This document shows positions 1-61,644 of a stretch of DNA of 64,000 bases, piece by piece (position 1 is the stretch's first letter; every line of letters starts with the position of its first letter). The notes under the pieces were generated by a model that saw only the letters and a program-made list of their open reading frames with translations, did no database searches and was not told where the DNA came from. Source of the DNA: a virus; IMG/VR virus record IMGVR_UViG_3300035034_001226, positions 22,721 to 86,720 of that record; one strand, written 5' to 3'. Both the position numbers and the translations under genes were made by a program.

Positions 1-472
1 GTTTACACAACCCCGGTATCTGTTTAGGGTTTAAAGGTTCACTATCCGTCTTCTTAATATAAGGTTTCGGAGGATTCCCATGTAAACTTCCATTACTATG
101 ATTCCATGCTGCAAATCTATAATAAAAATCCAGACAACCACAATTGACTTTGACATCACCACTGCCGTAACCAATAGGTACAATTCTGTATGCCTGACCA
201 TCAGATGATTGAAACTGAGTTTCACCACCTTCACCATACTCAACCGATGAAAACATCATTTGAGTATCGTATACTTTTGCTGAAGATCGACTTTTAGCCT
301 TAACTTCAACTAACCCATCATTTGGATATGGGATAAAAGTTTTACTGATAATTTGTACCCTACCAGAATTACCACCCCTATTAGAGTCAAAATTACTTGT
401 TGTGTTAGTTTGTAACTTAGCAACAGAATCTTCTTCTAATAAATTGGAAATTGGTATGATAATATTATTCAT
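1..472 (-). CDS. SWIM-type zinc-finger protein, truncated by window edge
   Basis: Hand translation from ATG 470-472: MNNIIIPISNLLEE...VKVNCGCLDFYYRF...PGLCK(H), open to base 1; CxC...CxH SWIM pattern; TATAAATA at 477-484. Confidence 0.7.
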   Translation of the reverse strand, partial: MNNIIIPISNLLEEDSVAKLQTNTTSNFDSNRGGNSGRVQIISKTFIPYPNDGLVEVKAKSRSSAKVYDTQMMFSSVEYGEGGETQFQSSDGQAYRIVPIGYGSGDVKVNCGCLDFYYRFAAWNHSNGSLHGNPPKPYIKKTDSEPLNPKQIPGLCK

Positions 473-2731: not shown

Positions 2732-4450
2732 TTACTTGGAAATCTCATATTCCCTATCATAATAACTTGCTCGCCATTCACCATTAATAACGTTAATCAA
2801 TGTTCTTGATCCGTCAGGATAAACTAAACAGTGTGTGTGTAACCAGCTAGATGGACCCCTCTGATATTCCAAATCTAGCCTAGCACTTAATCCAGTTTGA
2901 TAAGCACCTTCAATAATACCCGGACTATGTGAATGGCCAATAACAACTTTCGGGCCTATCTTTGAGAATGCGGCTAATCCACCACCACCACCATTAATTC
3001 GCTCATCACCATGAAATCCAATCTCAACATCAGCAACCATGAAGCTTTCATCACGTTGTAAAAACTTAGTTTGTTCAACAGATTTAAGACCCGGTTTACC
3101 TTCTGGCATTGGATTTTTACACCAAAACTCAAATGCTGAGAAGGTTTTAAATCCAGTTGCAGTAGGTTTAATATTTTTCATCTGCATATACTTCATATAA
3201 TAGAAAAACAGTGAATTCTCGGGATCATACTTAGGATCATTCTCCAATAACCATCTATCAAAAGCCTCATTATGATTTGCAGCAGTAACTAGGTTTAAAG
3301 TATCAGGTCTAGTATACTTATCAATAAAGTCTGCGGTTATTTGTAATCCCTCTTCAACATTATTGCGACCAAAATGGTGTTTACCATATGCTATAATATC
3401 ATTGCCTCTATGATGGTGATTACGACGATAAAAATCATCAGCATCTTGGTATACCATTACTTCTGGGCGTAAGACTCCAACAATGGAATCATCACCCTTA
3501 AATGTTGCATTTTCAACATCAGTATCTATGAACTCAGCATGTAGATCACCTGATATAAATGCTGCTACTCTACCATACTTAGTACGACCATGTGGTGTGT
3601 AATGATATTCCAAATCATAGAATGAACCATCATCAGCCGCATGAACATGACGTATGTGGAACTTATCATCATCAATTTCAACAATCAATGCACTGCAACT
3701 ATGATGGAATCTTCCCTTATGTCCAGCCTTGGAATCCGTATAGTTTTCTATTGTACATGCACCAGTAGTTACTTGAATTTTAGGCATCTTTTTATTAGGT
3801 GTTGCAATAGTTTTAAGTTGTACTTTGGGATGCCCAAATATACCAGAATCTGATCCTGTGAACGCTTCAAAGCCTGATAATGGCGTTGTTGCAGTTGGGG
3901 TTATTTTGATTTGTGCTAAAACATTAAGACCCTTACATACTTTAGTTTGATCGGTTACTAGATATTCCCCTAGTCCAGTAAACCACCAATCATGTTTTTT
4001 GTCAGTCCAAATTGAATTCGGATTTTTATAACGGTATGGTATAACACCAAGTTCAGCATTTCTGATTTCTTTATATTTTAGTAAGGTTGCCCAAAAGTTT
4101 TCATGAATTGGTGTTGCATTTTGGGCTGCGGTATAAACAAATACCTGTTTCTTGTTAGGGGAACTAATATCAATATTAGATGGGCCTGCTTCTTTAACTA
4201 GATACTTTTCGTATAGTAACTCGAATTTAACTAATTTATCTGGATCAATACCACCATTAAAGGTTGGATCAGTTTCTAATATTTTAAGTCTCATGCCAGT
4301 ATTTTTTTCTATAAGAAGTCTGCGCTTAATAACACTTCTTGGCAAAACATCCATATACTCTGCAAATTCTTCTCTACTAAGTTTAGATTCTATTGCTGCT
4401 CTATACTTTGCAATAAATTCTATATTTTGCTTATCTCGGTTTACTGTCAT
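2732..4450 (-). CDS. Calcineurin-like metallophosphoesterase with N-terminal extension
   Basis: GDLH, DADD, NHNE, FHGD and GHSH metal-binding motifs in order. Confidence 0.75.
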   Translation of the reverse strand: MTVNRDKQNIEFIAKYRAAIESKLSREEFAEYMDVLPRSVIKRRLLIEKNTGMRLKILETDPTFNGGIDPDKLVKFELLYEKYLVKEAGPSNIDISSPNKKQVFVYTAAQNATPIHENFWATLLKYKEIRNAELGVIPYRYKNPNSIWTDKKHDWWFTGLGEYLVTDQTKVCKGLNVLAQIKITPTATTPLSGFEAFTGSDSGIFGHPKVQLKTIATPNKKMPKIQVTTGACTIENYTDSKAGHKGRFHHSCSALIVEIDDDKFHIRHVHAADDGSFYDLEYHYTPHGRTKYGRVAAFISGDLHAEFIDTDVENATFKGDDSIVGVLRPEVMVYQDADDFYRRNHHHRGNDIIAYGKHHFGRNNVEEGLQITADFIDKYTRPDTLNLVTAANHNEAFDRWLLENDPKYDPENSLFFYYMKYMQMKNIKPTATGFKTFSAFEFWCKNPMPEGKPGLKSVEQTKFLQRDESFMVADVEIGFHGDERINGGGGGLAAFSKIGPKVVIGHSHSPGIIEGAYQTGLSARLDLEYQRGPSSWLHTHCLVYPDGSRTLINVINGEWRASYYDREYEISK

Positions 4451-31115: not shown

Positions 31116-32189
31116 TTATAATGATTTACTCATTATGTCTATTCTAATTTCATCCAACCTACGGCCAATACCAGCACCTACTAGTTGATTCTTTTCCTTT
31201 TCTGATAGATACTCAAAGTTAACTTTAGATGATTCATTAATAGCATTCAGTATTGCATCAGTGTCCTCCAATCGGAGCATCCAAAGTTGAGAAACTTTAA
31301 GATATGTTTCCAACAAACTAGTATCCTGCCAAAGTCTGTATACCTTACACAAATTAAACAATTCAATAGGGTCACTAAAGTCTATTCTATTTGCAGTAAC
31401 ACCGAAACTTATAGCTTCACTAATTTCAGTTGGTATAGATTGCTTCTCAATAAAGTTATCAGCTATATCTCTTCCAACATCCATAAATGTTCCCATCCAT
31501 CTTTCAATTTCAGTTGCGTTTGATACATTGAAAAGCATCATTCGCTGGGTTAGGTCACTGAATGCGATTGATGCAAGGTCAAATATGTCATGCATTGCAT
31601 CAACATCTTTCAGAATTCTGAAAAAGTTCTGGGGATTTGGTTCCATCATTGCGCGTGAAACTTCCTTCCACACCCTTTCACTAATAAGGTGCTTCACTTC
31701 ACCAAAATCAACCATCGCTTTCATCATATCCATAGTTGAAGGGTCAACAGTAAACCCATACCGTGCTGAAAATCTAGCAACCCTAAGAATCCTAACCGGA
31801 TCGTCGGAAAATGCACTAGATACATGACGAAGTATACCATTTTTAATATCATCACGTCCACCGAAAAAATCAAAGATTTCACCAGTTTCCAAATCCTGTG
31901 CAATGGCATTAATAGTCAAATCTCTACGCTTAAGATCATCTTCAAGTGTTACGTATGGTGTGTGATTGGTAGTGAAGCCAGTATATCCATTACCAGATTT
32001 ACGCTCCGTTCGTGCGAGTGCATACTCTTCACCATCTTTCAAAAACACTGGGAATGTTTGACTTACTTGATGGTAGCCAAGAGAGTACATTTCTTCTGGT
32101 GTCGAGCCAACTACGACATAATCAATATCTTGGGGTTCTATACCCATGATTTCATCTCGTACTGCTCCACCAACTTTATAAATTTTCAT
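31116..32189 (-). CDS. cca: tRNA nucleotidyltransferase (CCA-adding enzyme)
   Basis: VGGAVRD, DIDYV, EDDLKRRDLTINA, FSDDPVRILRVARF; start moved to MKIYK. Confidence 0.92.
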   Translation of the reverse strand: MKIYKVGGAVRDEIMGIEPQDIDYVVVGSTPEEMYSLGYHQVSQTFPVFLKDGEEYALARTERKSGNGYTGFTTNHTPYVTLEDDLKRRDLTINAIAQDLETGEIFDFFGGRDDIKNGILRHVSSAFSDDPVRILRVARFSARYGFTVDPSTMDMMKAMVDFGEVKHLISERVWKEVSRAMMEPNPQNFFRILKDVDAMHDIFDLASIAFSDLTQRMMLFNVSNATEIERWMGTFMDVGRDIADNFIEKQSIPTEISEAISFGVTANRIDFSDPIELFNLCKVYRLWQDTSLLETYLKVSQLWMLRLEDTDAILNAINESSKVNFEYLSEKEKNQLVGAGIGRRLDEIRIDIMSKSL

Positions 32190-32364
32190 ATCTATCACCT
32201 TGATTAAACTATTAATACATTTAAGCATGTATTATTGTTGATGTCAAGGTTTATTTTAACCTATTAATATTTAGTAGCCTTGCCTTTAATCGCAAATGTT
32301 ACACAAGTCCTCCGAATCGAACGGTACGGAGGACATCCTAGCCCACCCGCTGCACCAGCAAACG

Positions 32365-40897: not shown

Positions 40898-41050
40898 TGG
40901 TAGTAATGGGATGCTTGCAACACACCGACCTCCACCTCGTGGTGACGCTCTCTTCAGTTTTCTGTTGCAGTTTCTCGCTATTCAGGGTCATGACTCCCCT
41001 ACTCACTTAGCTGCTCAATCCCCCTACAATTGCTTCTGATCTACATTACC
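40898..41050 (-). ncRNA. 153-nt tRNA-like RNA with expanded central domain
   Basis: GGTAATG/CATTACT acceptor plus ACCA, T8A9 and GATC/GATT D stem, T-like arm. Confidence 0.6.
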
Positions 41051-41939: not shown

Positions 41940-42790
41940 AATAAACGCTGAGATTATACGTTTTAGTAGTGACCTTTAATTCCCGTACCATATCCCTTGC
42001 GAGGATAGTTAAGAACTTATCCATATAAACGCTATTAAGCTGCCTATATATTCACTAATGCTGCCTTGTTAAAGTGTGGCGTTTCACTTGTCATAACATA
42101 CTACTCGTCCAGTCTTATTACGTCTGGTCACCCAGTTAAACTCCGCTAAAAGTCTACGTACTCTTTCTAAACAAATATCATCAGCTTGCGGCCTTTGACA
42201 CACTCCATTCCAAATGGTGGAGTATTAAGCATTTTTAGTATGCTACCGGAATGGTCTTTGCGTTTTAATCAATAGTAGGACTTGAACCTACATACGATTC
42301 CTTTTGAGGGAATTGCCTAATCCAATTTGGCTATATTGTAACCTACTAAGATGTGCCATTCCTGTCGCTACATATCTTGTTAGATACGTAATACAACACA
42401 CCTCCTATCTTTCGTCTTGCGAACTACTCGATATCCTTTCACGATTATGGCTCTTACACCAATATCGTTCAAAATGATAGCTGCCCTTTCCTGCGAAAGA
42501 TCGGACTAATCCATCTACACATTAGAATCCCACTATGGTTAGGTTGATTTGTTCAGCTTGGCTATCACACCAATTCATGTCTCGCGGAGCCGTCTGACAC
42601 TATCCTTTCGGACTAAAACCCTAACTTACAGTTTATCGCTGCCTTAACAACGCGGCTAACTTAGAACCGAAGTTCATATTGCCTATCCTGTGCTTGCATA
42701 TATAGACCCTTACGGGTGATGGCGTGTAGGACGCTCATCTTTTTAAGTGTTACCACTTATTGTCTTATTGAGGATATGCCCCCAAATTCT
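41940..42790 (-). ncRNA. Large ornate RNA, GOLLD-like, with embedded tRNA-like domain
   Basis: ~850 nt without ORF between tRNA genes; many GNRA/UUCG hairpins; promoter at 42835-42862. Confidence 0.65.
42267..42341 (-). tRNA. tRNA-like domain (CAA anticodon) inside the large RNA
   Basis: ATTCC-CTCAAAA-GGAAT arm, GTAGG-TTCAAGT-CCTAC; 5-bp acceptor, no CCA. Confidence 0.6.
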
Positions 42791-42834: not shown

Positions 42835-42862
42835 ATTATATCATAAAATGTTTTATTGTCAA
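42835..42862 (-). promoter_or_regulatory. sigma70-like promoter
   Basis: TTGACA-16-TATAAT. Confidence 0.7.
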
Positions 42863-42977: not shown

Positions 42978-43047
42978 CCTATATTGCAAGATTCGAACTT
43001 GCGTCTGTGGGTTCGTCCACTGTTCTATCCACTGAACTATTTATAGG
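42978..43047 (-). pseudogene. tRNA-Arg(ACG)-like pseudo-tRNA with shortened anticodon loop
   Basis: D and T arms intact; GTGG-ACGAAC-CCAC; no CCA. Confidence 0.6.
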
Positions 43048-43049
43048 GT

Positions 43050-43184
43050 TGGGTATGGTCACTACTCCATAATCTTCCAGATGTTACTCCGGTGCTTTCT
43101 CAATCAATGTATTAGTGATATAACTATTTCGAAGTTCATTATACCACCTCAATCAATCTACATAGTGAATCTTTAAGCTACCTC
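43050..43184 (-). ncRNA. Unknown RNA motif, copy 1
   Basis: Three sequence blocks shared with 58891-59059. Confidence 0.6.
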
Positions 43185-43187
43185 AAA

Positions 43188-43463
43188 TTATTCTTTTAAT
43201 CTATTATTTAATCTATTATTTAATCTATCATTAAACCTCTGTAAATGTTCTGAAGTTAGTTCCATTTCTAAGGTTAATTGCTCTAATAATAAATTAGTTT
43301 TATGTAATAGATATTCTGTACTTTCTTTATCAAGATTAGGATTTTTTTCCATCTCATCCAATTCTTCAATTATTTCACTCTTACGAGTATTGCATTTTTC
43401 TATATTATGTTTGATAGTATCATAATATACTTCTTCTAAATTGTCAAATATTTCATGTTCCAT
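43188..43463 (-). CDS. Hypothetical coiled-coil protein
   Basis: 91 aa; 12-bp repeat x3 at C-terminus. Confidence 0.55.
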   Translation of the reverse strand: MEHEIFDNLEEVYYDTIKHNIEKCNTRKSEIIEELDEMEKNPNLDKESTEYLLHKTNLLLEQLTLEMELTSEHLQRFNDRLNNRLNNRLKE

Positions 43464-43479
43464 TTTAGTTACCTATTAT

Positions 43480-43557
43480 TGGGGTGGTGGGGGGAACTCG
43501 AATCCCCATCTTCTTCGTTCACAGCAAAGAGCTTTACCTAATTAAGCTAACACCACC
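43480..43557 (-). tRNA. tRNA-His (GUG)
   Basis: G-1:C73, CTTTG-CTGTGAA-CGAAG. Confidence 0.88.
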
Positions 43558-43602
43558 ATCTCATCTATCAATTTAATCGTCATCACGTGGATATACATAC
43601 CA

Positions 43603-43848
43603 TCAGTCATTATCTTCTACAATATTATAATATAATTCAACTTTCACAATCTTTGGTACGATCAACGTTCCATCATCAGAGTATAATTGACTGAAATCCC
43701 ATTCATCAATGTTTGGTAGTGTTTTAAACATTCGTGCCTTGTTTATATCACTAGTCCATAACCCCTCTGCATATGGGTGGCTACTCTGATGTTTCTGATG
43801 ATATCCTAATTCACATTCAATAAGATAAACTTCTTTTAATTTTTCCAT
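43603..43848 (-). CDS. Hypothetical protein
   Basis: 81 aa with RBS. Confidence 0.55.
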   Translation of the reverse strand: MEKLKEVYLIECELGYHQKHQSSHPYAEGLWTSDINKARMFKTLPNIDEWDFSQLYSDDGTLIVPKIVKVELYYNIVEDND

Positions 43849-43861
43849 TATTATTCCAATT

Positions 43862-43938
43862 TGGAGACTCCGCTCGGACTTGAACCGAGATAACCCAACT
43901 TAACAGGATGGTGCTCTTACCAATTGAGCTACAGAGTC
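43862..43938 (-). tRNA. tRNA-Asn (GUU), U73
   Basis: CCATC-CTGTTAA-GTTGG. Confidence 0.85.
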
Positions 43939-43951
43939 AGATTTTGCATAT

Positions 43952-44028
43952 TGGTAGGAGCCGTGAGACTTGAACTCACTATCTTTCGCTTATAAGACGA
44001 ATGCATTTACCTGTTATGCTACGCTCCC
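43952..44028 (-). tRNA. tRNA-Ile (UAU)
   Basis: TTCGT-CTTATAA-GCGAA, A73, CCA. Confidence 0.88.
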
Positions 44029-44062
44029 ATTATAGAAGCTACGTATTTCACTTTCTAACATT

Positions 44063-44443
44063 TTATTCTCCGTATTTTGCTTTCAGTTCCAAATATTTCT
44101 TTTTAGCATTCTGAAATATTTGTTCCTCGTTTTTCTGCTTTTTCAATTTTCTAGTAGCTGCTGCCTTTTTTGATCGTTCACTATTTCGCTTGTTAGCAGC
44201 TTGACGTTTCTCATACTCTTTATCGGTTTCCATTCTTATGGCATAGCAATTTAATTCACCTTCATCATAATCATAAGATCGATAATTAAACATTACATCA
44301 TGATATCCCTGAGATTTTTCATAAATAACAGTGTCTTTAATCTTTGAAATAAATTCTTCTGATCTAAGATAACTAATATGATATAACTCAAATCCACTAA
44401 TCTCAACCCTTATTTCAATTTTATCTGTACTCTTCAAACTCAT
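44063..44443 (-). CDS. Hypothetical protein
   Basis: 126 aa. Confidence 0.6.
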   Translation of the reverse strand: MSLKSTDKIEIRVEISGFELYHISYLRSEEFISKIKDTVIYEKSQGYHDVMFNYRSYDYDEGELNCYAIRMETDKEYEKRQAANKRNSERSKKAAATRKLKKQKNEEQIFQNAKKKYLELKAKYGE

Positions 44444-44647
44444 ATCATTTCCTTTCCTATTAAATTAGTACCGCCAGTGAGTCAGAAACCTAGAATTTCT
44501 CATGTAAGTAGGGAATCGAACCCTATCGAACCCTAAATGGCTGTGCAACCAGTACACCACATAACACTTTGTCACTCACTAGCTAGCAACTCATTACCTT
44601 AACCTGCCAAGGATACACCTCATGGACGTATGATGGGGTCGAACCAT

Positions 44648-44911
44648 CTAATGAGTCGATTCTTCAATGATATCTACCATTGTCATTAAACCGTGGGGAT
44701 TATTACCTGCCACTGTCCAAGTACCTTTGATATCATTTAAATTCACTCTACCTGATAACTCATATGTCTTTCCATCATCGTACACAACTTTCATTGTACA
44801 TTTATGGTTATCAATCAGTTTCAAATCTTCAATTTCTACTGATACTGCTTCAATTTCTTTTGTTGGCACTCTTCTCTTGAACCAACTTGTTTTCCTAATC
44901 TCTAATTTCAT
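44648..44911 (-). CDS. Hypothetical protein
   Basis: 87 aa. Confidence 0.55.
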   Translation of the reverse strand: MKLEIRKTSWFKRRVPTKEIEAVSVEIEDLKLIDNHKCTMKVVYDDGKTYELSGRVNLNDIKGTWTVAGNNPHGLMTMVDIIEESTH

Positions 44912-44961
44912 GTTTCACATTATACATAGTAATTTTAATAATGCAACACTTTTTTATAAAA

Positions 44962-46227
44962 TTAATTACTCAATTCAATTAAATGTGAAATTGTGCACTG
45001 CTTACCATCATACACGATGTACTCATTATTACGTAGATCAGCACCACCTTCAGCAAACACACTATCATACCCCTCACGTTTCAAAACGCTCTTAGAGAGA
45101 GAATAACAGTCACGTGTGTGATGTTTAATACGCTTCCACTTACCAGTATGGACTTTAAATAATGCTAGGTATGCAGTATTGTCACTTCCACTCGCCCAAT
45201 ATGATCCACGTAGGGAAGTATATCCAATAGACTTCTGTGCCTTATCAGCAAAGTAGATACCATCACCAAACATAGAGCCAGTATATAAAGCACCCGCTGG
45301 ACGAATCATCAAACCAGTAGAAATAATATTCAACCAGTTTTGATTTCTTGAACCGTGAAAGAAATGTCTTACATGCTTATCATCAACCGATTTCAAATGG
45401 TTATCGAACTTCTTCTCAGTTGCCAAATGCTTTACAGTGAAAACTCTTTTGACTTGACCCTTGTTGCTACCCATCTTACTCACTGCAAAGTCATATTCTT
45501 CAGTTGATGCTGCTTCTATTTCTACACCCAACATTGTTAGAATGTCTTTATGATCAGATTTCACAGTATCATCGGTTTCATCATTAATCAAAACCTGTCC
45601 AGCCATTACATCTAATGTAGCCTGCTCTTCTGCAATTTGACTTTTAATATCATCTAATAATGCCTTATTAATTTTAGCATCCTTTTCAAATATATGATCC
45701 CTAACATCTTTCATTCGGCGTGGAATGATATGATATAGTTCAATCAATTGCTTATTAATATCATCAGTTTTCCTTCTAAGTTTTGCGGCATCTAAGATAC
45801 TATTAACCTTATCTTGGGCCTCATCAATCTGTGCTTGTGTAACTGATTTAGAACTTACTGAATAATTTTCCTGAATAGAGTTATTAGCAAAACGTTGTAA
45901 TATATCCATCAAGGATTTAACTTTACTGTCTTTAATATCTACAATGTTTGATGGTGTACTACTATCAGACTCTGCAAATAAATGGGTAACTTCAGTGTAA
46001 ATACTACCACTTTTACTCTTCTTAGACTTTATAACGGAATCCCATTTTGACATCGGATATTCTTTAATCTGTGGGGCACAATCTACTCTACCATATTCTG
46101 CAATGAATGTTGAATCATCCTGCTCATACATATTGTAGTATTTGTTGCTCTGTGCAGTTTTACCATCATCAATGGAAACACAAATTAACTTACATACTTT
46201 TTTGCCTTCTACTAATAACTCACTCAT
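44962..46227 (-). CDS. PARP-like ADP-ribosyltransferase: WGR, regulatory and catalytic domains
   Basis: NKYY...EYGRV (WGR); LYHIIPR (regulatory); FHGS, GSMFGDGIYFA, KSIGY, NNEYIVY (H-Y-E triad). Confidence 0.9.
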   Translation of the reverse strand: MSELLVEGKKVCKLICVSIDDGKTAQSNKYYNMYEQDDSTFIAEYGRVDCAPQIKEYPMSKWDSVIKSKKSKSGSIYTEVTHLFAESDSSTPSNIVDIKDSKVKSLMDILQRFANNSIQENYSVSSKSVTQAQIDEAQDKVNSILDAAKLRRKTDDINKQLIELYHIIPRRMKDVRDHIFEKDAKINKALLDDIKSQIAEEQATLDVMAGQVLINDETDDTVKSDHKDILTMLGVEIEAASTEEYDFAVSKMGSNKGQVKRVFTVKHLATEKKFDNHLKSVDDKHVRHFFHGSRNQNWLNIISTGLMIRPAGALYTGSMFGDGIYFADKAQKSIGYTSLRGSYWASGSDNTAYLALFKVHTGKWKRIKHHTRDCYSLSKSVLKREGYDSVFAEGGADLRNNEYIVYDGKQCTISHLIELSN

Positions 46228-46230
46228 AAT

Positions 46231-46836
46231 TTATCCCGTTGCTAGGCTGCTTCTGACATTATTATAGTTAACATGGAAAACATCAGCATGTGCCTGACGT
46301 GCCTGACCACGACTAATATCTTGTATAAAAAAGGCCATGTGTCCAGTTGATTGAGAAATTCTAGTTACATCTTCATCTAAACCAAAATCCAATAATTTTT
46401 TATAATCAGTAAACACATAGATATTATAACCTCTAGAATTTGTATATAATTTAGGATAATCAGCTACTGACATATTTTCCATTTTTGATATTTGTGCTCC
46501 TGTTAGTCCATCCCAACCATCACCTATTTCAAGTCCTATCTCACCATCATCATCAAGATCAGGATAATTATGATCAGTAGTAACTGATGCACTTGGTGAA
46601 GCTAATGTATAGATTCGATAATTTCCAGAATGTGGTTCTACTGTAAATTCAAGTGGCAATTCATCTGCGGCTTGTGCCATAAAATGTGAAACTTCATCTT
46701 GGTCAGCCTGATAATTAATTTGACGAAGAAGATTCTTTACTTCTAAAGTCGTAGTATTTGAATTTCGCTCTATTAATAATAGAGTGGCGTACTTTACTGC
46801 TAATGGTGTTAAATTGTTCATATTAAATTTCCTCAA
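46231..46836 (-). CDS. Hypothetical protein co-transcribed upstream of PARP
   Basis: TTTLEVKNLLR N-domain; 3-nt gap to PARP; promoter at 46846-46874. Confidence 0.7.
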   Translation of the reverse strand: MRKFNMNNLTPLAVKYATLLLIERNSNTTTLEVKNLLRQINYQADQDEVSHFMAQAADELPLEFTVEPHSGNYRIYTLASPSASVTTDHNYPDLDDDGEIGLEIGDGWDGLTGAQISKMENMSVADYPKLYTNSRGYNIYVFTDYKKLLDFGLDEDVTRISQSTGHMAFFIQDISRGQARQAHADVFHVNYNNVRSSLATG

Positions 46837-46882
46837 GTTGTAGATATAATACTACATGAATTTAAATATGTCAACTATTTTT

Positions 46883-46957
46883 TGGTGGAGCCAAAGGGAT
46901 TTGAACCCTTATCTTCTACGTGCAAGGCAGGAGTTCTTCCAATTGAACTATGGCCCC
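46883..46957 (-). tRNA. tRNA-Ala (UGC)
   Basis: G3-U70, CTTGCAC loop. Confidence 0.9.
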
Positions 46958-46964
46958 AAAAATT

Positions 46965-47039
46965 TGGCGAAACGAAAGAGATTTGAACTCTCACCACCTT
47001 CCGTGACAAGGAAGTGCTCTACCATTAAGCTACCGTTCC
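46965..47039 (-). tRNA. tRNA-Asp (GUC)
   Basis: CTTCC-TTGTCAC-GGAAG, G73. Confidence 0.9.
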
Positions 47040-47112
47040 TAACTTCGGCTTTATTCGATGGTCTTTCCCATCACCGCTCACAATGTAAGACGGAGGTTGC
47101 CGACATCCTATT

Positions 47113-47188
47113 TGGTGGGTCTAGAAGGCTTCGAACCTTCAACTTCTCGGTTAAGAGCCGAGTGCTCTGCCAGTTGAGCTATAGACCC
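47113..47188 (-). tRNA. tRNA-Lys (CUU)
   Basis: CTCGG-CTCTTAA-CCGAG. Confidence 0.92.
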
Positions 47189-47201
47189 AAAATTATCACA
47201 T

Positions 47202-47420
47202 TCAATTATCACTATCGACTATGAAACCCACACACAATCCATATATAACACCCCCACTATCAGTAACTTCAAAGTCAGCGTCATAATTCATTCTAGTTCG
47301 AACAAACTCTTCAAGTTCTACTAAACTACCAAACAATAAAATTGGTGGGTTACAACCATAGTCCTTATAATCGGTATCATTTATCCAGATACGTAACTTT
47401 CTTCTTCTAAATTTTATCAT
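47202..47420 (-). CDS. Hypothetical protein
   Basis: 72 aa with RBS. Confidence 0.55.
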   Translation of the reverse strand: MIKFRRRKLRIWINDTDYKDYGCNPPILLFGSLVELEEFVRTRMNYDADFEVTDSGGVIYGLCVGFIVDSDN

Positions 47421-47437
47421 ATATATCCACTATAATT

Positions 47438-47513
47438 TGGTGCACTTGGTAGGACTCGAACCTACACCTTCAAGCTTAGGAGGCTTGTGCCCTGTCCATT
47501 AGACTACAAGTGC
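47438..47513 (-). tRNA. tRNA-Arg (CCU)
   Basis: CAAGC-CTCCTAA-GCTTG. Confidence 0.92.
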
Positions 47514-56083: not shown

Positions 56084-56160
56084 TGGCGCGAGTAGATACC
56101 TAGCAGTACCATTTCTCCCAGTTCATTGGGAGCGTCCTTACCTATTTAGACTATACTCAC
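56084..56160 (-). tRNA. Non-canonical tRNA-like gene B (variant T loop, 8-nt anticodon loop)
   Basis: Identical T arm to gene A; CTCCC-AATGAACT-GGGAG; GCCA. Confidence 0.65.
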
Positions 56161-56182
56161 TTATTATTCACTTATTATTCAT

Positions 56183-56257
56183 TGGAGCCACATCTCGGAA
56201 TCGAACCGAGTTCTCAAGCTTACAAGGCTAGTGCATCGCCAGCAATGCTTATGCGGC
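56183..56257 (-). tRNA. tRNA-Thr (UGU)
   Basis: CTAGC-CTTGTAA-GCTTG. Confidence 0.85.
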
Positions 56258-56271
56258 TAGTATATCATTAT

Positions 56272-56646
56272 TTATTCGATAAATCCAGCTTTTTTATAAA
56301 TTTTAATTTTATCAGTATAATCATTTGATATAAATCTTGGGACTGTTGATGTTGGTTCAATATTTAAGTATGTATAATTCTCTAAAAATTCATCCATTTG
56401 ATTACCACTACAAACAGTAATCATTTCTATAATTTTTTCACCATCTGTGGTAAGTCTTTCAACCACTATATAGTAAAGCTTTTCACCAACTTGAAATCTA
56501 TTATTTACAGATTCAGTAACTTCTTCAAGTGATTAATTATCACCATGTTCTTCCATATTCTCCATCCGCCCATCAATAAGATTTTGGATAGTTTCTTCTG
56601 TAATTACCTTTGCATTCTGTTTTTCTAATAATTCAAATAGTTCCAT
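56272..56646 (-). pseudogene. Hypothetical gene split by in-frame TAA
   Basis: MELFELLE...HGDN*SLEEV... continues in frame into track ORF 56272-56466; TAA at 56533-56535. Confidence 0.6.
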
Positions 56647-56647
56647 A

Positions 56648-57346
56648 TTACTTAATCCTCAACTTATCGCTATTGAATTTAACAATAGTGGTATTTCCCT
56701 CAGTATATACTTCAATAGGTGCACTATTATGTACTGAAAAATTTGATGTAATTATCGTAAAAGTTTCAATATCATCAAAATTTAAATCATGTTCTTGTGG
56801 AATTTTTAATATCCCAATATATTCACTGCTGGCAGTTTCGTCATCATTACATAGTGAAATGCTTACCACATCAGTTGACTTCACTATAAGATCATATATG
56901 GTTAAATACGTATAATTGATAATTTGTTTTTGCATTACCGGGTCAGATGGGTCTTTACTCCTCATAGTTGCCGAAAACTTTACAATATTGGACGCATTTC
57001 CTTCACCTTCTAAACTGCCAATAAATCCATTTTCAGTAAGATTATGTTTAATTAACCCCTGCAATACTTTCCACCTACCATCAGGGTCATCTTTATAATT
57101 GGCAGTTTCTGCAAATTCTAATGCTTCTACTGGAACCTTCATATTAAGATTAATAAATAGTTTATCTTCATCATAATAAGGGAATTCTGGAAACATTTTT
57201 TCATAATCACATAAATCTGAAATATTTTGCTGTTGTTCTTTAGAAAGTAAAACTTTTATTGACTCATTTGTATATGACGACTTTATATCAATTTTATATT
57301 TCATATAATCATCAGGCATCTCAGTGTTATTCTCACTAGTATTCAT
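56648..57346 (-). CDS. Hypothetical protein, late-promoter driven
   Basis: 232 aa; TATAAATA at 57365-57372. Confidence 0.7.
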   Translation of the reverse strand: MNTSENNTEMPDDYMKYKIDIKSSYTNESIKVLLSKEQQQNISDLCDYEKMFPEFPYYDEDKLFINLNMKVPVEALEFAETANYKDDPDGRWKVLQGLIKHNLTENGFIGSLEGEGNASNIVKFSATMRSKDPSDPVMQKQIINYTYLTIYDLIVKSTDVVSISLCNDDETASSEYIGILKIPQEHDLNFDDIETFTIITSNFSVHNSAPIEVYTEGNTTIVKFNSDKLRIK

Positions 57347-57395
57347 ATTATCTCCATATTTTACTATTTATATAGTAAAAAAATGCTTGAGCTTT

Positions 57396-57470
57396 TGGCT
57401 GGCCCACTAGGTTTCGAACCTAGACTCCAAGGATCAGAACCTTGTACACTACCAGTTATGTTACAGGCCA
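57396..57470 (-). tRNA. tRNA-Gln (CUG)
   Basis: U1-A72, CAAGG-TTCTGAT-CCTTG. Confidence 0.9.
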
Positions 57471-57561
57471 ATATTTTTTTAATAATTTCATAAACTAATA
57501 AATAATACCATTGATGTGTCACATCAATGCATAAAATTCTAATAAAATAAAAGGTAAAAAA

Positions 57562-58253
57562 ATGAAAAAATTATATTAACAATCTCAATGATTGTTGTAA
57601 CAATGATGTCTTTTCAAGCATCTGCTTGGACTACCCCAATTTATGGTGGTGTACTGTGGCATTATGGTAACATTGTAAACTATAACGTACACCAATCTGG
57701 TGATTATGTAGAGGTTGATCTACAATTTCGAACACATGTTGCTGATATTGATCCGTTATTAAAGGATTGGAAACTATTGATACGACCAAATATTACCATC
57801 AATGGTGTTGTAACAACTCTTTCACAGTGGCCATTTTCTGCGTTTGAGAATCTTGAATTGCAACCGAATGGAAAATATGGATTTATTACTGCATTTAAAC
57901 CATTTAATAATCCAGAAAGGGTTTATCTACCACAGAATTCAGACCCTGTTACAATTTGTGCCAACCCTAGTGATAGCTATGTGGCATTGAATGAATTGAC
58001 AGGTAATGGATATTATGAGCATCGTAGTGGTGGTTCTACCCCTACAGTGTACGGTAATAGCGTGAATACTGTATATTGGACACAAAGTGGTTATTGTGCA
58101 ACATTTCAACGTGTTGGTTACGACGAGCCACCTGTTATTGAGCCAGAAGAACCAACTCCACCTAATGATCCATATGTGCCATCTCCACCACCACCACCAA
58201 CCCCACCATTTCCGGGTTGTGATCCAGCAAATGGACAATATGCAAGTTGTTAA
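57562..58253 (+). CDS. Secreted protein with Pro-rich C-terminus; signal peptide frameshifted at an A6 run
   Basis: ATG-A6 gives an early TAA; A7 gives MKKIILTISMIVVTMMSFQASA in frame with track ORF 57588-58253. Confidence 0.7.
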
Positions 58254-58265
58254 CTTGTAATTCTT

Positions 58266-58290
58266 AAAGGACTCTTCGGAGTCCTTTTTT
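58266..58290 (+). terminator. Rho-independent terminator
   Basis: AAAGGACTC-TTCG-GAGTCCTTTTTT. Confidence 0.9.
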
Positions 58291-58395
58291 AGCTATCAAG
58301 AAATATTTCTAATAATTAATTATGTGGGTGGTAATATTTTTGACCTTTACTCTTACAATCGGGACGGTCAGGCGAGTACCCACATACTAATTTAC

Positions 58396-58728
58396 TTATG
58401 CTGCGTAAAAAAACTTTACACCATTCACTGATGTGTTGTTATTAATAGCAACAGATATTTTCTTTACTTCAACATTAAGCGTTTCAGCGGCATGTTTTTT
58501 ATTGTCATACCTTCCAACAAAACGACCTTGTTCATCACGAACAATTAAAGGTAGAGTGTGCATAATTCTACAAAACACGCTACGATTGTATATGGCATAT
58601 TCACCGAAATCATACACCGATTCGTTTTTTGATAACTTTTCACTTACCGTTTTAAAGCGTTCTGACGCATATTCAGTCCCAATATATCTTCCTTCATCAA
58701 AGGCTTCTTTAACTAATTCTTTATACAT
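58396..58728 (-). CDS. NUMOD1-like DNA-binding protein
   Basis: GRFVGRYDNKKHAAETLNV...ISVAI...GVKFFY. Confidence 0.55.
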   Translation of the reverse strand: MYKELVKEAFDEGRYIGTEYASERFKTVSEKLSKNESVYDFGEYAIYNRSVFCRIMHTLPLIVRDEQGRFVGRYDNKKHAAETLNVEVKKISVAINNNTSVNGVKFFYAA

Positions 58729-58800
58729 TTGTATTTTTCTCTAAATTTAAAAGAAGTATTATATCACAACCTATAATATAATCAAGCATATAATGGTATT

Positions 58801-58878
58801 TGGCTACCCCGGAAGGATTCGAACCTTCAACACCCAGAATCAAAATCTGGTGCTCTACCAAGATTGAGCTACGAGGCA
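58801..58878 (-). tRNA. tRNA-Gln (UUG)
   Basis: CCAGA-TTTTGAT-TCTGG. Confidence 0.9.
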
Positions 58879-58890
58879 TCATTGTGTAAT

Positions 58891-59059
58891 TGGTGGGTGT
58901 CTGAATTTGGCATGGTTGCTACTCCATGATCTTGCCACATAGTGCGACATGTTTTCTCAGTAAGGGTTTAGTTGTTACACAGTGTGAGGTGATCAGCCAA
59001 TTTGCATAACATACCTTACCTACTTAGCAATCTTTAAACTACTCTATTCAGACTTACCC
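58891..59059 (-). ncRNA. Unknown RNA motif, copy 2, CCA-terminated
   Basis: GGGT-AA-GTCTGAAT / ATTCAGAC-ACCC-ACCA terminal stem; blocks shared with 43050-43184. Confidence 0.7.
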
Positions 59060-59062
59060 GTT

Positions 59063-59139
59063 TGGTAGCCAAGGTGGGAGTCGAACCCACAATCACCAGC
59101 TTCTAAAGCTGATAGCGATGCCAGTTTGCTTACTCGGCC
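59063..59139 (-). tRNA. tRNA-Leu (UAG), short variable loop
   Basis: TCAGC-TTTAGAA-GCTGG; same D arm as 47827 and 52306. Confidence 0.8.
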
Positions 59140-60356: not shown

Positions 60357-61514
60357 TTATCTCCTATTTTTAAACTTGCGGAGATTATACCCATCAAGAT
60401 TACCAATGTCAACCCTTGTAAAGATAATAGATAATAATAGACTGCAAATAATACCCACTATGCTCATAATTACAATTGCAGTGGTTGATGGTGTTACCTG
60501 AGAACCCAAATATTCAAATTCTTTCATACTAATGCGATCAAATAATAAATCAGTATTAGCTTCCATAACTGTTGCAAGTACATCAGGATCGAATTTTTGA
60601 ACATTTAATAATGCATCACGTAGTGTGACATTATACACTTCATTCCCCATGTTACCGGCAAATGTCATAACGTCAGCCCATATGATTTTTTCACCATCTA
60701 TGCCTAAGAAAATTACAGCGTCATTTTTCTTTGCACCAATCCATTCTGATTCAACTGCATACCTATATGATGGGTCTGAAATATTAGTCACAATAACAAT
60801 AAAGTTAACTTGTTTTTTTGGTGCCAGTTCTATTAATGATACATTAAGTAACATATTCAATCTATCCCTGTCCGGTTTACTTATACCAGAATTAACATTT
60901 AGAACTCTATTTATTTTATACTTAGATCGTACTCTTGGATATGATGGAATTAACCCCTCAAAAGAATTTAATAATGTTGATGGGTTGATGATACTATCAG
61001 GAACAGCTTTAACATAATTAGTATATGTTTCTTCTTTGCTAGCTGGTTCTCCCACTATACAGTCAGTATATGATTGAGGATCAGGTTCATTATATACCCT
61101 TCTACTACCCCTATCCAAATGTTTAAATGTGATTTCTTCATTGACAAATCCATAATTGGCATCAGCTTTCCAATGAACAGTATATCTATCCTCATAACAT
61201 GTAGAACAAGTGGTAGAACAACTTCTATTTTTTCCACTACCTGAACATGTTTCGTAGCAATTACATTCATAACTTCTCGTGTATTCACCATGCACACGAT
61301 CCTTAGAGATAATTTTACCGTTCCATATTTCTGTATCATCAGTCTGGCTTGTAATACTAATATAATAACTTCCTGATACTATTAGTATCACAATCACAAT
61401 ATTAATTACAATCTCTAATATATTCAATGATTTTTGAAAAAACATTTTCATAATTAGTGGAATTGATAATGGTACCAATAACAGTAGTGCTAACGTCCCA
61501 ATACTTCCTATCAT
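60357..61514 (-). CDS. Multi-pass membrane protein with Cys-rich loop and TPM-like domain (start MIGSIG)
   Basis: Two N-terminal TMs and a C-terminal TM, CNCYETC...CSTTCSTC, WIGAKKNDAVIFLG; track start lies inside tRNA-Tyr. Confidence 0.65.
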   Translation of the reverse strand: MIGSIGTLALLLLVPLSIPLIMKMFFQKSLNILEIVINIVIVILIVSGSYYISITSQTDDTEIWNGKIISKDRVHGEYTRSYECNCYETCSGSGKNRSCSTTCSTCYEDRYTVHWKADANYGFVNEEITFKHLDRGSRRVYNEPDPQSYTDCIVGEPASKEETYTNYVKAVPDSIINPSTLLNSFEGLIPSYPRVRSKYKINRVLNVNSGISKPDRDRLNMLLNVSLIELAPKKQVNFIVIVTNISDPSYRYAVESEWIGAKKNDAVIFLGIDGEKIIWADVMTFAGNMGNEVYNVTLRDALLNVQKFDPDVLATVMEANTDLLFDRISMKEFEYLGSQVTPSTTAIVIMSIVGIICSLLLSIIFTRVDIGNLDGYNLRKFKNRR

Positions 61515-61569
61515 AATTTTACTCCTATGTAAAATTTCATTATACGATAGATTTTTAATAAAGTCAAAT

Positions 61570-61644
61570 TGGTGGGGGCCGTAGGATTCGAACCTACATG
61601 TCTCTGATTTACAGTCAGATGCTTCCCAATCACGCCACACCCCC
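61570..61644 (-). tRNA. tRNA-Tyr (GUA), short variable loop
   Basis: TCTGA-CTGTAAA-TCAGA, 5-nt variable loop, A73. Confidence 0.8.

Follow-up and report, generated by a model that had tools for sequence, protein, structure and literature searches.

The DNA examined here, referred to as the window, is a 64,000-nucleotide (nt) stretch of the virus record IMGVR_UViG_3300035034_001226, and it carries two paralogous copies of a structured RNA, copy 1 and copy 2, within an array of transfer RNA (tRNA) genes. The RNA is a new family that is absent from Rfam, and in kind it is a tRNA-cluster passenger RNA with tRNA-like ends. The two copies probably belong to a family of stable, tRNA-like RNAs (~140-170 nt) that are embedded in the tRNA arrays of XacN1-like lake jumbo phages and are freed by tRNA-processing enzymes. 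A trans-acting tRNA-like RNA was ranked as the most likely explanation, above a ribozyme, a riboswitch-like leader, homology to RNAC of phage T4, and neutral decay.

Common fold and covariation

An earlier note on this DNA had described three ordered sequence blocks (A, B, and C) shared by two loci, and pairwise alignment recovered all of their stated features, in identical order, in 43184..43047 and 59059..58891 on the minus strand. A degenerate pattern for block C had exactly two matches in the 64 kb, one in each copy, compared with 0 expected from 100 shuffles. To derive the structure, the minimum-free-energy fold of copy 2 was combined with the conserved blocks. The parts of both copies are listed below (P, helix; J, joining strand; bp, base pairs).

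58891..59059, minus strand: copy 2, full RNA, 169 nt (P1 of 12 bp with AA bulge, P2-P5, ACCA tail)
59046..59059, minus strand: copy 2 P1, 5' strand, GGGU-AA-GUCUGAAU
59020..59045, minus strand: copy 2 block A (J1/2 AGAG, P2 UAG/CUA, loop UUUAAAGAUUG, J2/3 AGUAG), conserved in four sequences
58960..59019, minus strand: copy 2 P3 (outer 6 bp, inner 8 bp, 23-nt loop)
58950..58959, minus strand: copy 2 block B, which is J3/4, UGAGAAAACA
58933..58949, minus strand: copy 2 P4, a variable 7-bp hairpin
58907..58932, minus strand: copy 2 block C (J4/5 AGAU, P5 CAUGG/CCAUG, loop AGUAGCAA, J5/1 CCAA)
58891..58906, minus strand: copy 2 P1, 3' strand (58906..58895), and ACCA tail (58894..58891)
43047..43186, minus strand: copy 1, full RNA, ~140 nt (short P1, P2-P5, CC tail abutting the next tRNA-like gene)
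43158..43186, minus strand: copy 1 P1, 5' strand UUG(A)GG, and block A (P2 UAG/CUA, loop CUUAAAGAUUCA, J2/3 UGUAG)
43103..43157, minus strand: copy 1 P3 (outer AUUGAU/AUUGAU, inner 11 bp, 13-nt loop)
43093..43102, minus strand: copy 1 block B, which is J3/4, UGAGAAAGCA
43077..43092, minus strand: copy 1 P4 (CCGGA/UCUGG)
43047..43076, minus strand: copy 1 block C (AAGAU, P5 UAUGG/CCAUA, loop AGUAGUGA), P1 3' strand CCCAA, and tail CC

The common fold has five helices arranged around invariant, purine-rich joining strands: P1 is the terminal helix, P2 is a small and P5 a 5-bp hairpin, and P3 (long) and P4 are variable hairpins. P2 is UAG/CUA with a 10-12-nt loop beginning UUAAA and is followed by J2/3, (A/U)GUAG. 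J3/4 reads UGAGAAARCA and leads into P4 (5-7 bp), after which J4/5 (AAGAU), P5 (5 bp, loop AGUAGYRA), and J5/1, CC(A)AA, complete the core. The 12-bp terminal stem ending in an exact ACCA directly after a tRNA, as reported in the earlier note, is present in copy 2 only, with a 2-nt AA bulge; P1 of copy 1 is shorter (~5 bp, one A bulged). The sequence arrangement at the P3 base, (A/U)GUAG-helix-UGAG, is taken here to resemble the loop E or bulged-G module (AGUA opposite GAA), and what we presume to be the canonical loop E form, AGUA(G)-helix-(U/C)GAA, is present in a more divergent sequence (L096, below) and in a tRNA mimic of the same array (41050..40898). A mirror layout was also observed within each RNA, in which block A holds GAGUAG-N4-AAGAU and block C holds AAGAU-N4-GAGUAG (43020-43084; 59024-59044 vs 58916-58932, minus strand). 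The 4-nt spacing is equal in copy 1, copy 2, and partly L055 (below), and the two motifs are not complementary.

A covariance model constructed from copy 2 alone (R1) retrieved copy 1 at 36.3 bits (expectation value, E, 2.4e-9), the sole other real match in the window and in the 105-kb contig from which the window was taken. In the alignment of the two copies, all pair cells (71/71) were standard pairs, and 10 pairs had changed on both sides (4 in outer P3, 3 in inner P3, and 1 each in P1, P4, and P5). The compensatory change TATGG/CCATA versus CATGG/CCATG, to which the earlier note had drawn attention, is real and lies in P5. When the 3' partners in this alignment were slid by 1-3 columns, pairing fell to 32-43%. 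Inclusion of the related sequence L055 raised the number of pairs with a double-sided change to 14, with 99% of the cells paired; none of 500 shuffles reached any of the five measures, and the slid controls were 34-43% paired. RNAalifold, applied to a plain MAFFT alignment of these three sequences, independently recovered P2, outer P3, P4, and P5, with 10 double-change pairs. Across four sequences (with L096), 43 of the 76 common columns were invariant, and 26 of these were unpaired. P3 and P4 retain pairing only, and sequence is retained in the joining strands, in the UUAAA with which the P2 loop begins, and in the AGUAGYRA loop of P5. The fold and selection on the fold are well supported by these comparisons, in line with the proposal of the earlier note that the copies are paralogs of a structured RNA under selection.

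The copies might instead have arisen by duplication of a tRNA gene and be decaying, or be a repeat at the level of DNA without RNA function, alike through recent common descent. Pseudo-tRNAs do occur in phage tRNA arrays, one abuts copy 1, and the closest relatives that were examined lack the family. The copies differ, however, at a third of their aligned positions, yet all P3, P4, and P5 pairs are kept with the 10 double changes noted above, and the core hardly differs in a phage with ~50% identity in the neighbouring proteins. Because both the core and the pairs are kept, neutral decay is disfavoured and was considered highly improbable.

No known family was found to account for the RNA. The motif had been called unrecognised in the earlier note, and a scan of the whole window with Rfam 15 at gathering score placed no family over either copy; at E up to 10, both loci gave the flanking tRNAs only. 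Weak matches (a SodC thermometer, and a tymovirus tRNA-like element over tRNA-Leu) were dismissed as noise. The gathering-score scan of L055 likewise gave no family match to its element. Covariance models of Rfam 15 for GOLLD, ROOL, HEARO, Y RNA/YrlA, 6S, T-box, and small self-cleaving ribozymes did not match. A transfer-messenger RNA (tmRNA) was rejected, as the tmRNA mode of ARAGORN found none, and so was a bacterial Y RNA (YrlA), as the 105-kb contig (~30% of the genome) holds no TROVE/Ro/Rsr (PF05731) match. Inspection by eye for a T-box-like specifier (a P3-loop codon matching the adjoining tRNA) and for loop-loop pseudoknots showed nothing consistent across members.

Relatives and setting in the tRNA array

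The two-copy covariance model (R2) was used to evaluate candidates from several collections. A pattern joining block B to block C had 22 matches in Joint Genome Institute (JGI) metagenome contigs, 1 of which was accepted by R2 (L055, a contig of 2,247 bp; element at 259..118, minus strand; 54.4 bits, E 3e-12). This element lies between two same-strand tRNA-His genes and begins 3 nt after the first. Its blocks A, B, and C are almost unchanged, and the first pair of P5 is G-C, compared with C-G and U-A in the copies. The neighbouring open reading frames (ORFs) of L055 are 46-58% identical to proteins of the window, and L055 therefore comes from a related but well-diverged phage.

The contigs L096 and L097 were reached through homologs of the window ORF 44648-44911. 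With filters off, R2 matched 2884-3048 of L096 (identical in L097) at 15.8 bits (E 0.004-0.006). In the order of the family, this element has GUAGCUUAAA, CUAAAGUAG, a long P3, GAAUAGAGCA where block B would be expected, P4 (5 bp), AAGAU, P5 (5 bp, loop AUAGCAA), and P1 (5-7 bp), then AACCA. It ends 1 nt ahead of a tRNA-Gln(UUG) gene, and copy 2 likewise lies just upstream of tRNA-Gln(UUG). On this evidence the L096 element was counted as a probable member of greater divergence. At 2935-2990 (plus strand) of L096, a near-tandem repeat, AAUAGAGAAACC / GAAUAGAGCACC, was noted where other members hold block B once. The RNA is conserved in at least one, and probably two, other phage fragments; their neighbouring proteins are no more than 46-67% identical to those of the window, whereas the core of the RNA has hardly changed.

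Model searches of four isolated jumbo phages (XacN1, Xoo-sp13, Stenotrophomonas CM1, and Ralstonia RsoM2USA) and of 13 IMG/VR relatives chosen by capsid similarity, G001 among them, gave no match. Comparison with 50,697 phage records using blastn and megablast was negative. Exact-pattern scans of IMG/VR with four patterns yielded no true match, the single match (L077) failing the model, and all 15 matches of a pattern scan of GTDB genome contigs were rejected by the model. For two window proteins (60357-61640 and 44962-46227), none of the five closest relatives has a homolog, which made synteny unusable at those loci. A single-protein locus search found nothing, and homolog searches with the 110-amino-acid (aa) ORF beside copy 2 and the 134-aa ORF beside the L096 element returned only self-matches. 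Every member sits in a tRNA array and is encoded on the same strand as the tRNAs, and the distribution of the family is patchy. Scattered pieces of the same phage, with no new variants, were present in contigs of four further DNA runs from lakes and salt lakes; one of these contigs (266 nt) spans most of copy 2 with zero differences.

The source record is a 105-kb IMG/VR virus contig from lake water, ~30% complete, of which the 64-kb window forms part. Its major capsid protein shares 70% identity with the protein of Xanthomonas jumbo phage XacN1; for Xoo-sp13 and the Stenotrophomonas phages CM1 and RAS14 the values are 64-67%. The contig is a fragment of a jumbo phage from lake water and is related to XacN1. 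XacN1 is noted for its very large tRNA complement (PMC5852040). ARAGORN predicted 38 tRNA genes in the window, on the minus strand without exception, plus a few odd tRNA-like matches. A tRNA nucleotidyltransferase, two RNA ligase-like proteins, and a DNA ligase are also encoded. Features of the window that bear on the setting are as follows.

31116-32228: tRNA nucleotidyltransferase
41945-42404, minus strand: GOLLD RNA (RF02032, Rfam, 156 bits), in the same tRNA array as both copies
42978..43046, minus strand: odd tRNA-like gene abutting copy 1 (Rfam tRNA, 39.8 bits; no ARAGORN call)
43419..43447, minus strand: sigma-70-like promoter TTGACA-17-TATGAT (11/12) upstream of copy 1, a consensus match only

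Copy 2 is flanked by tRNA-Leu(UAG) (59139..59063) and tRNA-Gln(UUG) (58878..58801); it starts 3 nt past the encoded CCA of the former and ends 12 nt ahead of the latter. Copy 1 starts 1 nt past the stop codon that ends a 91-codon ORF (43188-43463) and has no spacer to the tRNA-like gene at 43046, which itself lacks an encoded CCA and has 2 non-standard acceptor pairs and an anticodon loop of 6 nt. No ORF of more than 31 aa overlaps either copy, and both were classed as non-coding. No terminator-like sites were seen near either copy on the tRNA strand, and the sequencing runs listed as holding the sequence include no RNA run.

Several other features of the array and its counterparts were recorded. 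The 91-codon ORF lies between tRNA-His and copy 1 on the minus strand, the promoter at 43447-43419 falls within its first codons, and 11-nt tandem repeats (43190-43225) encode its C-terminus. The ORF as drawn might not correspond to a genuine gene. A perfect TTGACA-16-TATAAT promoter with a TG extension is located at 42835-42862 (minus strand), between tRNA-Ile, which it closely follows, and the GOLLD region, which lies downstream, and the GOLLD RNA embeds a tRNA-Leu(CAA)-like match (42267-42340). Rfam tRNA matches without an ARAGORN call are present at 52917-53034 and 50715-50780 (both minus strand), one of which, at 118 nt, would hold a large insert. In relatives of the phage, a permuted tmRNA was called in G005 (L053, 7310-7753, plus strand), and G001 carries a suppressor tRNA with the anticodon CUA (called 'Pyl') and another tRNA whose 'anticodon' is 2 nt long (L040, 5642-5717, and L039, 19597-19670, both minus strand); the window has no such calls.

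tRNA-like design, and the proposed release and role

The helix order of the RNA is that of a class II tRNA (RF00005), namely a terminal helix, a small hairpin with a big loop, a long hairpin, an extra hairpin, a 5-bp hairpin, a return strand, and a single-stranded tail. P1 would be the counterpart of the acceptor stem, P2 of the D arm, P4 of the extra arm, and P5 of the T arm, with P3 replacing the anticodon arm. Given this order, the family is most likely a much-expanded tRNA derivative. The start of block A, UAGCUUAAA (G-UA-G(C/U)UU-AAA), resembles tRNA positions 7-16. P5 matches the T stem in its 5 bp and is closed by G-C in three of the four sequences, and the G that precedes UA can pair with the base directly following P5 (G-C in three sequences and G-U in the other), similar to pair 7-66 of tRNA. 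The tail after P1 is ACCA in copy 2, AACCA in L096, and AACC ending at the next tRNA-like gene in copy 1. P1 has 12 bp in copy 2, 5-7 bp in L096, and ~5 bp in copy 1; we take the 12 bp of copy 2 to be as long as the acceptor and T helices stacked together in tRNA. Differences from tRNA are also evident: P3 ends in 13-23-nt loops and does not match the 7-nt anticodon loop, the joining strands are 4-10 nt compared with 0-2 nt, and P1 ranges over 3-12 bp compared with 7 bp. The helix order, the likeness of block A to positions 7-16, and the T4 RNAs as an analogue by setting (below) go beyond what the earlier note had reported.

Because of the position in the array, release by tRNA-processing enzymes can reasonably be inferred. 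The genes would be co-transcribed with the flanking tRNAs, a step supported by the location of both copies on the strand of all 38 tRNAs, and the host tRNA-processing enzymes would excise the RNA. RNase P, acting at the following tRNA or at P1 itself, would generate one end, and 3' trimming of the preceding tRNA would generate the other; in copy 1, the 3' end would be set by an RNase P cut at the 5' end of the tRNA-like gene 42978..43046. The 12-bp P1 of copy 2 and its ACCA should suit both RNase P and the phage CCA-adding enzyme. The conserved junction could then be the working part, perhaps by binding, in trans, a protein or RNA involved in tRNA metabolism, for example as a decoy or regulator, although this last step is speculative.

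Two cis-acting explanations were weighed against this proposal. The element could be a self-cleaving ribozyme, or another cis-acting element that helps to cut the tRNA-array transcript, with the invariant junction as its catalytic core; as no known family fits, this would be a new class. Small ribozymes typically combine a conserved junction with variable helices, and the elements do lie close to tRNA ends, at 3 nt for copy 2 and L055 and at 0-1 nt for copy 1 and L096. Models of the hammerhead, twister, twister-sister, pistol, hatchet, and HDV-like ribozymes, however, had no match at E up to 10, and a ribozyme is unneeded where RNase P and 3' trimming already resolve tRNA arrays. The ACCA-like tails and the 12-bp P1 suggest a retained product rather than a discarded spacer, and the element is absent from most tRNA spacers of this array; a ribozyme was accordingly judged unlikely. 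A riboswitch-like ligand sensor, or another cis-regulatory leader for a downstream gene, was considered very unlikely. Invariant unpaired purines in multi-helix junctions are, in general, typical of aptamers, and the copy 1 transcript probably begins at the promoter ~230 nt upstream. The next gene downstream is nevertheless a tRNA or tRNA-like gene in 4/4 cases and never coding, no terminator or stem sequestering a ribosome-binding site follows, and copy 2 and L055 begin 3 nt after a tRNA and hence would be internal to a polycistron. The suggestions of nucleotide-ligand binding and of cleavage made in the earlier note are less likely than a processed, trans-acting tRNA-like RNA.

The proposal of a processed tRNA-like RNA also has a number of points that weigh against it. 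The expression, ends, and stability of the RNA are all deduced from the DNA. The family consists of four distinct sequences only, two of which are paralogs and the fourth a weak match, and alignments made with a model lean towards that model's own structure. The Rfam tRNA model (RF00005), at E up to 10, had no match over either copy, and ARAGORN, with score thresholds of 50-70% and introns allowed, found nothing in the four sequences. The GG of the tRNA D loop is absent from the P2 loop, and the P5 loop, AGUAGYRA (8 nt) or AUAGCAA, does not match the 7-nt T loop (UUCRANY). P2 allows two mutually exclusive pairings, UAG/CUA or GYUU/AWGU, and covariation favours neither; the D-stem-like alternative (GYUU/AWGU, with one A between it and P3) agrees with the four sequences in all but one cell. 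L055 has no CCA-like tail. In G001, the closest available relative with a full tRNA array (capsid ~84% identical), the best match with filters off was 8.9 bits (E 1.2) and was judged to be noise; since this array lacks a copy, the lineage can do without the RNA. Because the tRNA detectors reject the RNA, the D-loop GG is missing, and the P5 loop is not a T loop, descent from tRNA is a plausible reading and is not claimed more strongly.

Large phages carry big tRNA arrays, and recent work ties phage tRNAs to the evasion of host defences that cut tRNAs. A more far-reaching version of the tRNA-like reading is that the RNA forms a new functional tRNA-derived class, CCA-tailed and with the anticodon arm replaced by the purine-rich junction, which might bind and disable a host tRNA-targeting factor (an anticodon nuclease or other tRNA-directed defence) or steer the tRNA repair or CCA enzymes of the phage; less likely, the junction would be a new small-ribozyme core. 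This version was regarded as doubtful. If the family does bind a tRNA-directed enzyme, an RNA-based layer would be added to phage control of translation or defence, and if it does nothing detectable, it would still document the remodelling of tRNA genes into new folds.

Comparison with other RNAs of phage tRNA clusters

Small non-tRNA RNAs in phage tRNA arrays have been known since T4 (RNAC and RNAD), none with a known function. The covariation-backed fold, the sharply conserved junction, and the natural variant pair described here (a short P1 versus a 12-bp P1 with ACCA) offer a tractable model for such passenger RNAs. The T4 RNAs (species 1 and 2; NC_000866, 70908-71046 and 71053-71171) also lie in a phage tRNA cluster, on the tRNA strand, and beside a tRNA (tRNA-Arg). 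T4 likewise has two paralog-like genes per phage, of 139 nt (RNAC) and 119 nt (RNAD) compared with 140-169 nt here. Both RNAs are expressed late, and decades on their role is unknown (PMC3014915, PMC9697503).

The new family could be a distant homolog of these species, both being derived from one old family in T4-like and XacN1-like phages. In addition to setting, strand, similar size, and tRNA-like ends, RNAC contains the 9-mer GAGUAGCGU twice, once as the GUAGCG loop of a UUGA/UCAA hairpin (T4 tRNA region L001, 2909-3047, minus strand); GAGUAG is present twice in the new family, and the P5 loop of L055 holds GUAGCG as well. This likeness may be due to chance, as simple arithmetic gives ~30 chance occurrences of a hexamer such as GAGUAG in 64 kb on both strands. 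RNAC keeps a canonical T arm, GGUUCGAAUCC, that is missing from the new family, the UGAGAAARCA and AAGAU junction strands were not seen in the T4 RNAs, and the helix order could not be matched. Because R2 found no match in the T4 tRNA region, the relation to RNAC and RNAD is claimed as analogy and not as homology, and common descent was held to be quite unlikely.

GOLLD (RF02032) and other tRNA-adjoining phage RNAs resemble the family in being structured, of unknown role, phage-borne, and lake-derived; GOLLD is 400-900 nt compared with ~150 nt here, and there is no sequence or model match between them. The 153-nt tRNA mimic at 41050..40898 (minus strand) shares the array, the strand, and an ACCA tail with the copies, and it contains GAGAAA. 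It was considered as a third paralog and rejected, since neither R1 nor R2 matched it even with filters off. Its AGUAG-helix-UGAA module is like the (A/U)GUAG-P3-UGAG of the family, whereas it retains, unlike the family, a 7-bp acceptor stem and a 7-nt T-like loop. With tRNA genes themselves the family shares its setting in the array, from which it could be released by the same enzymes.

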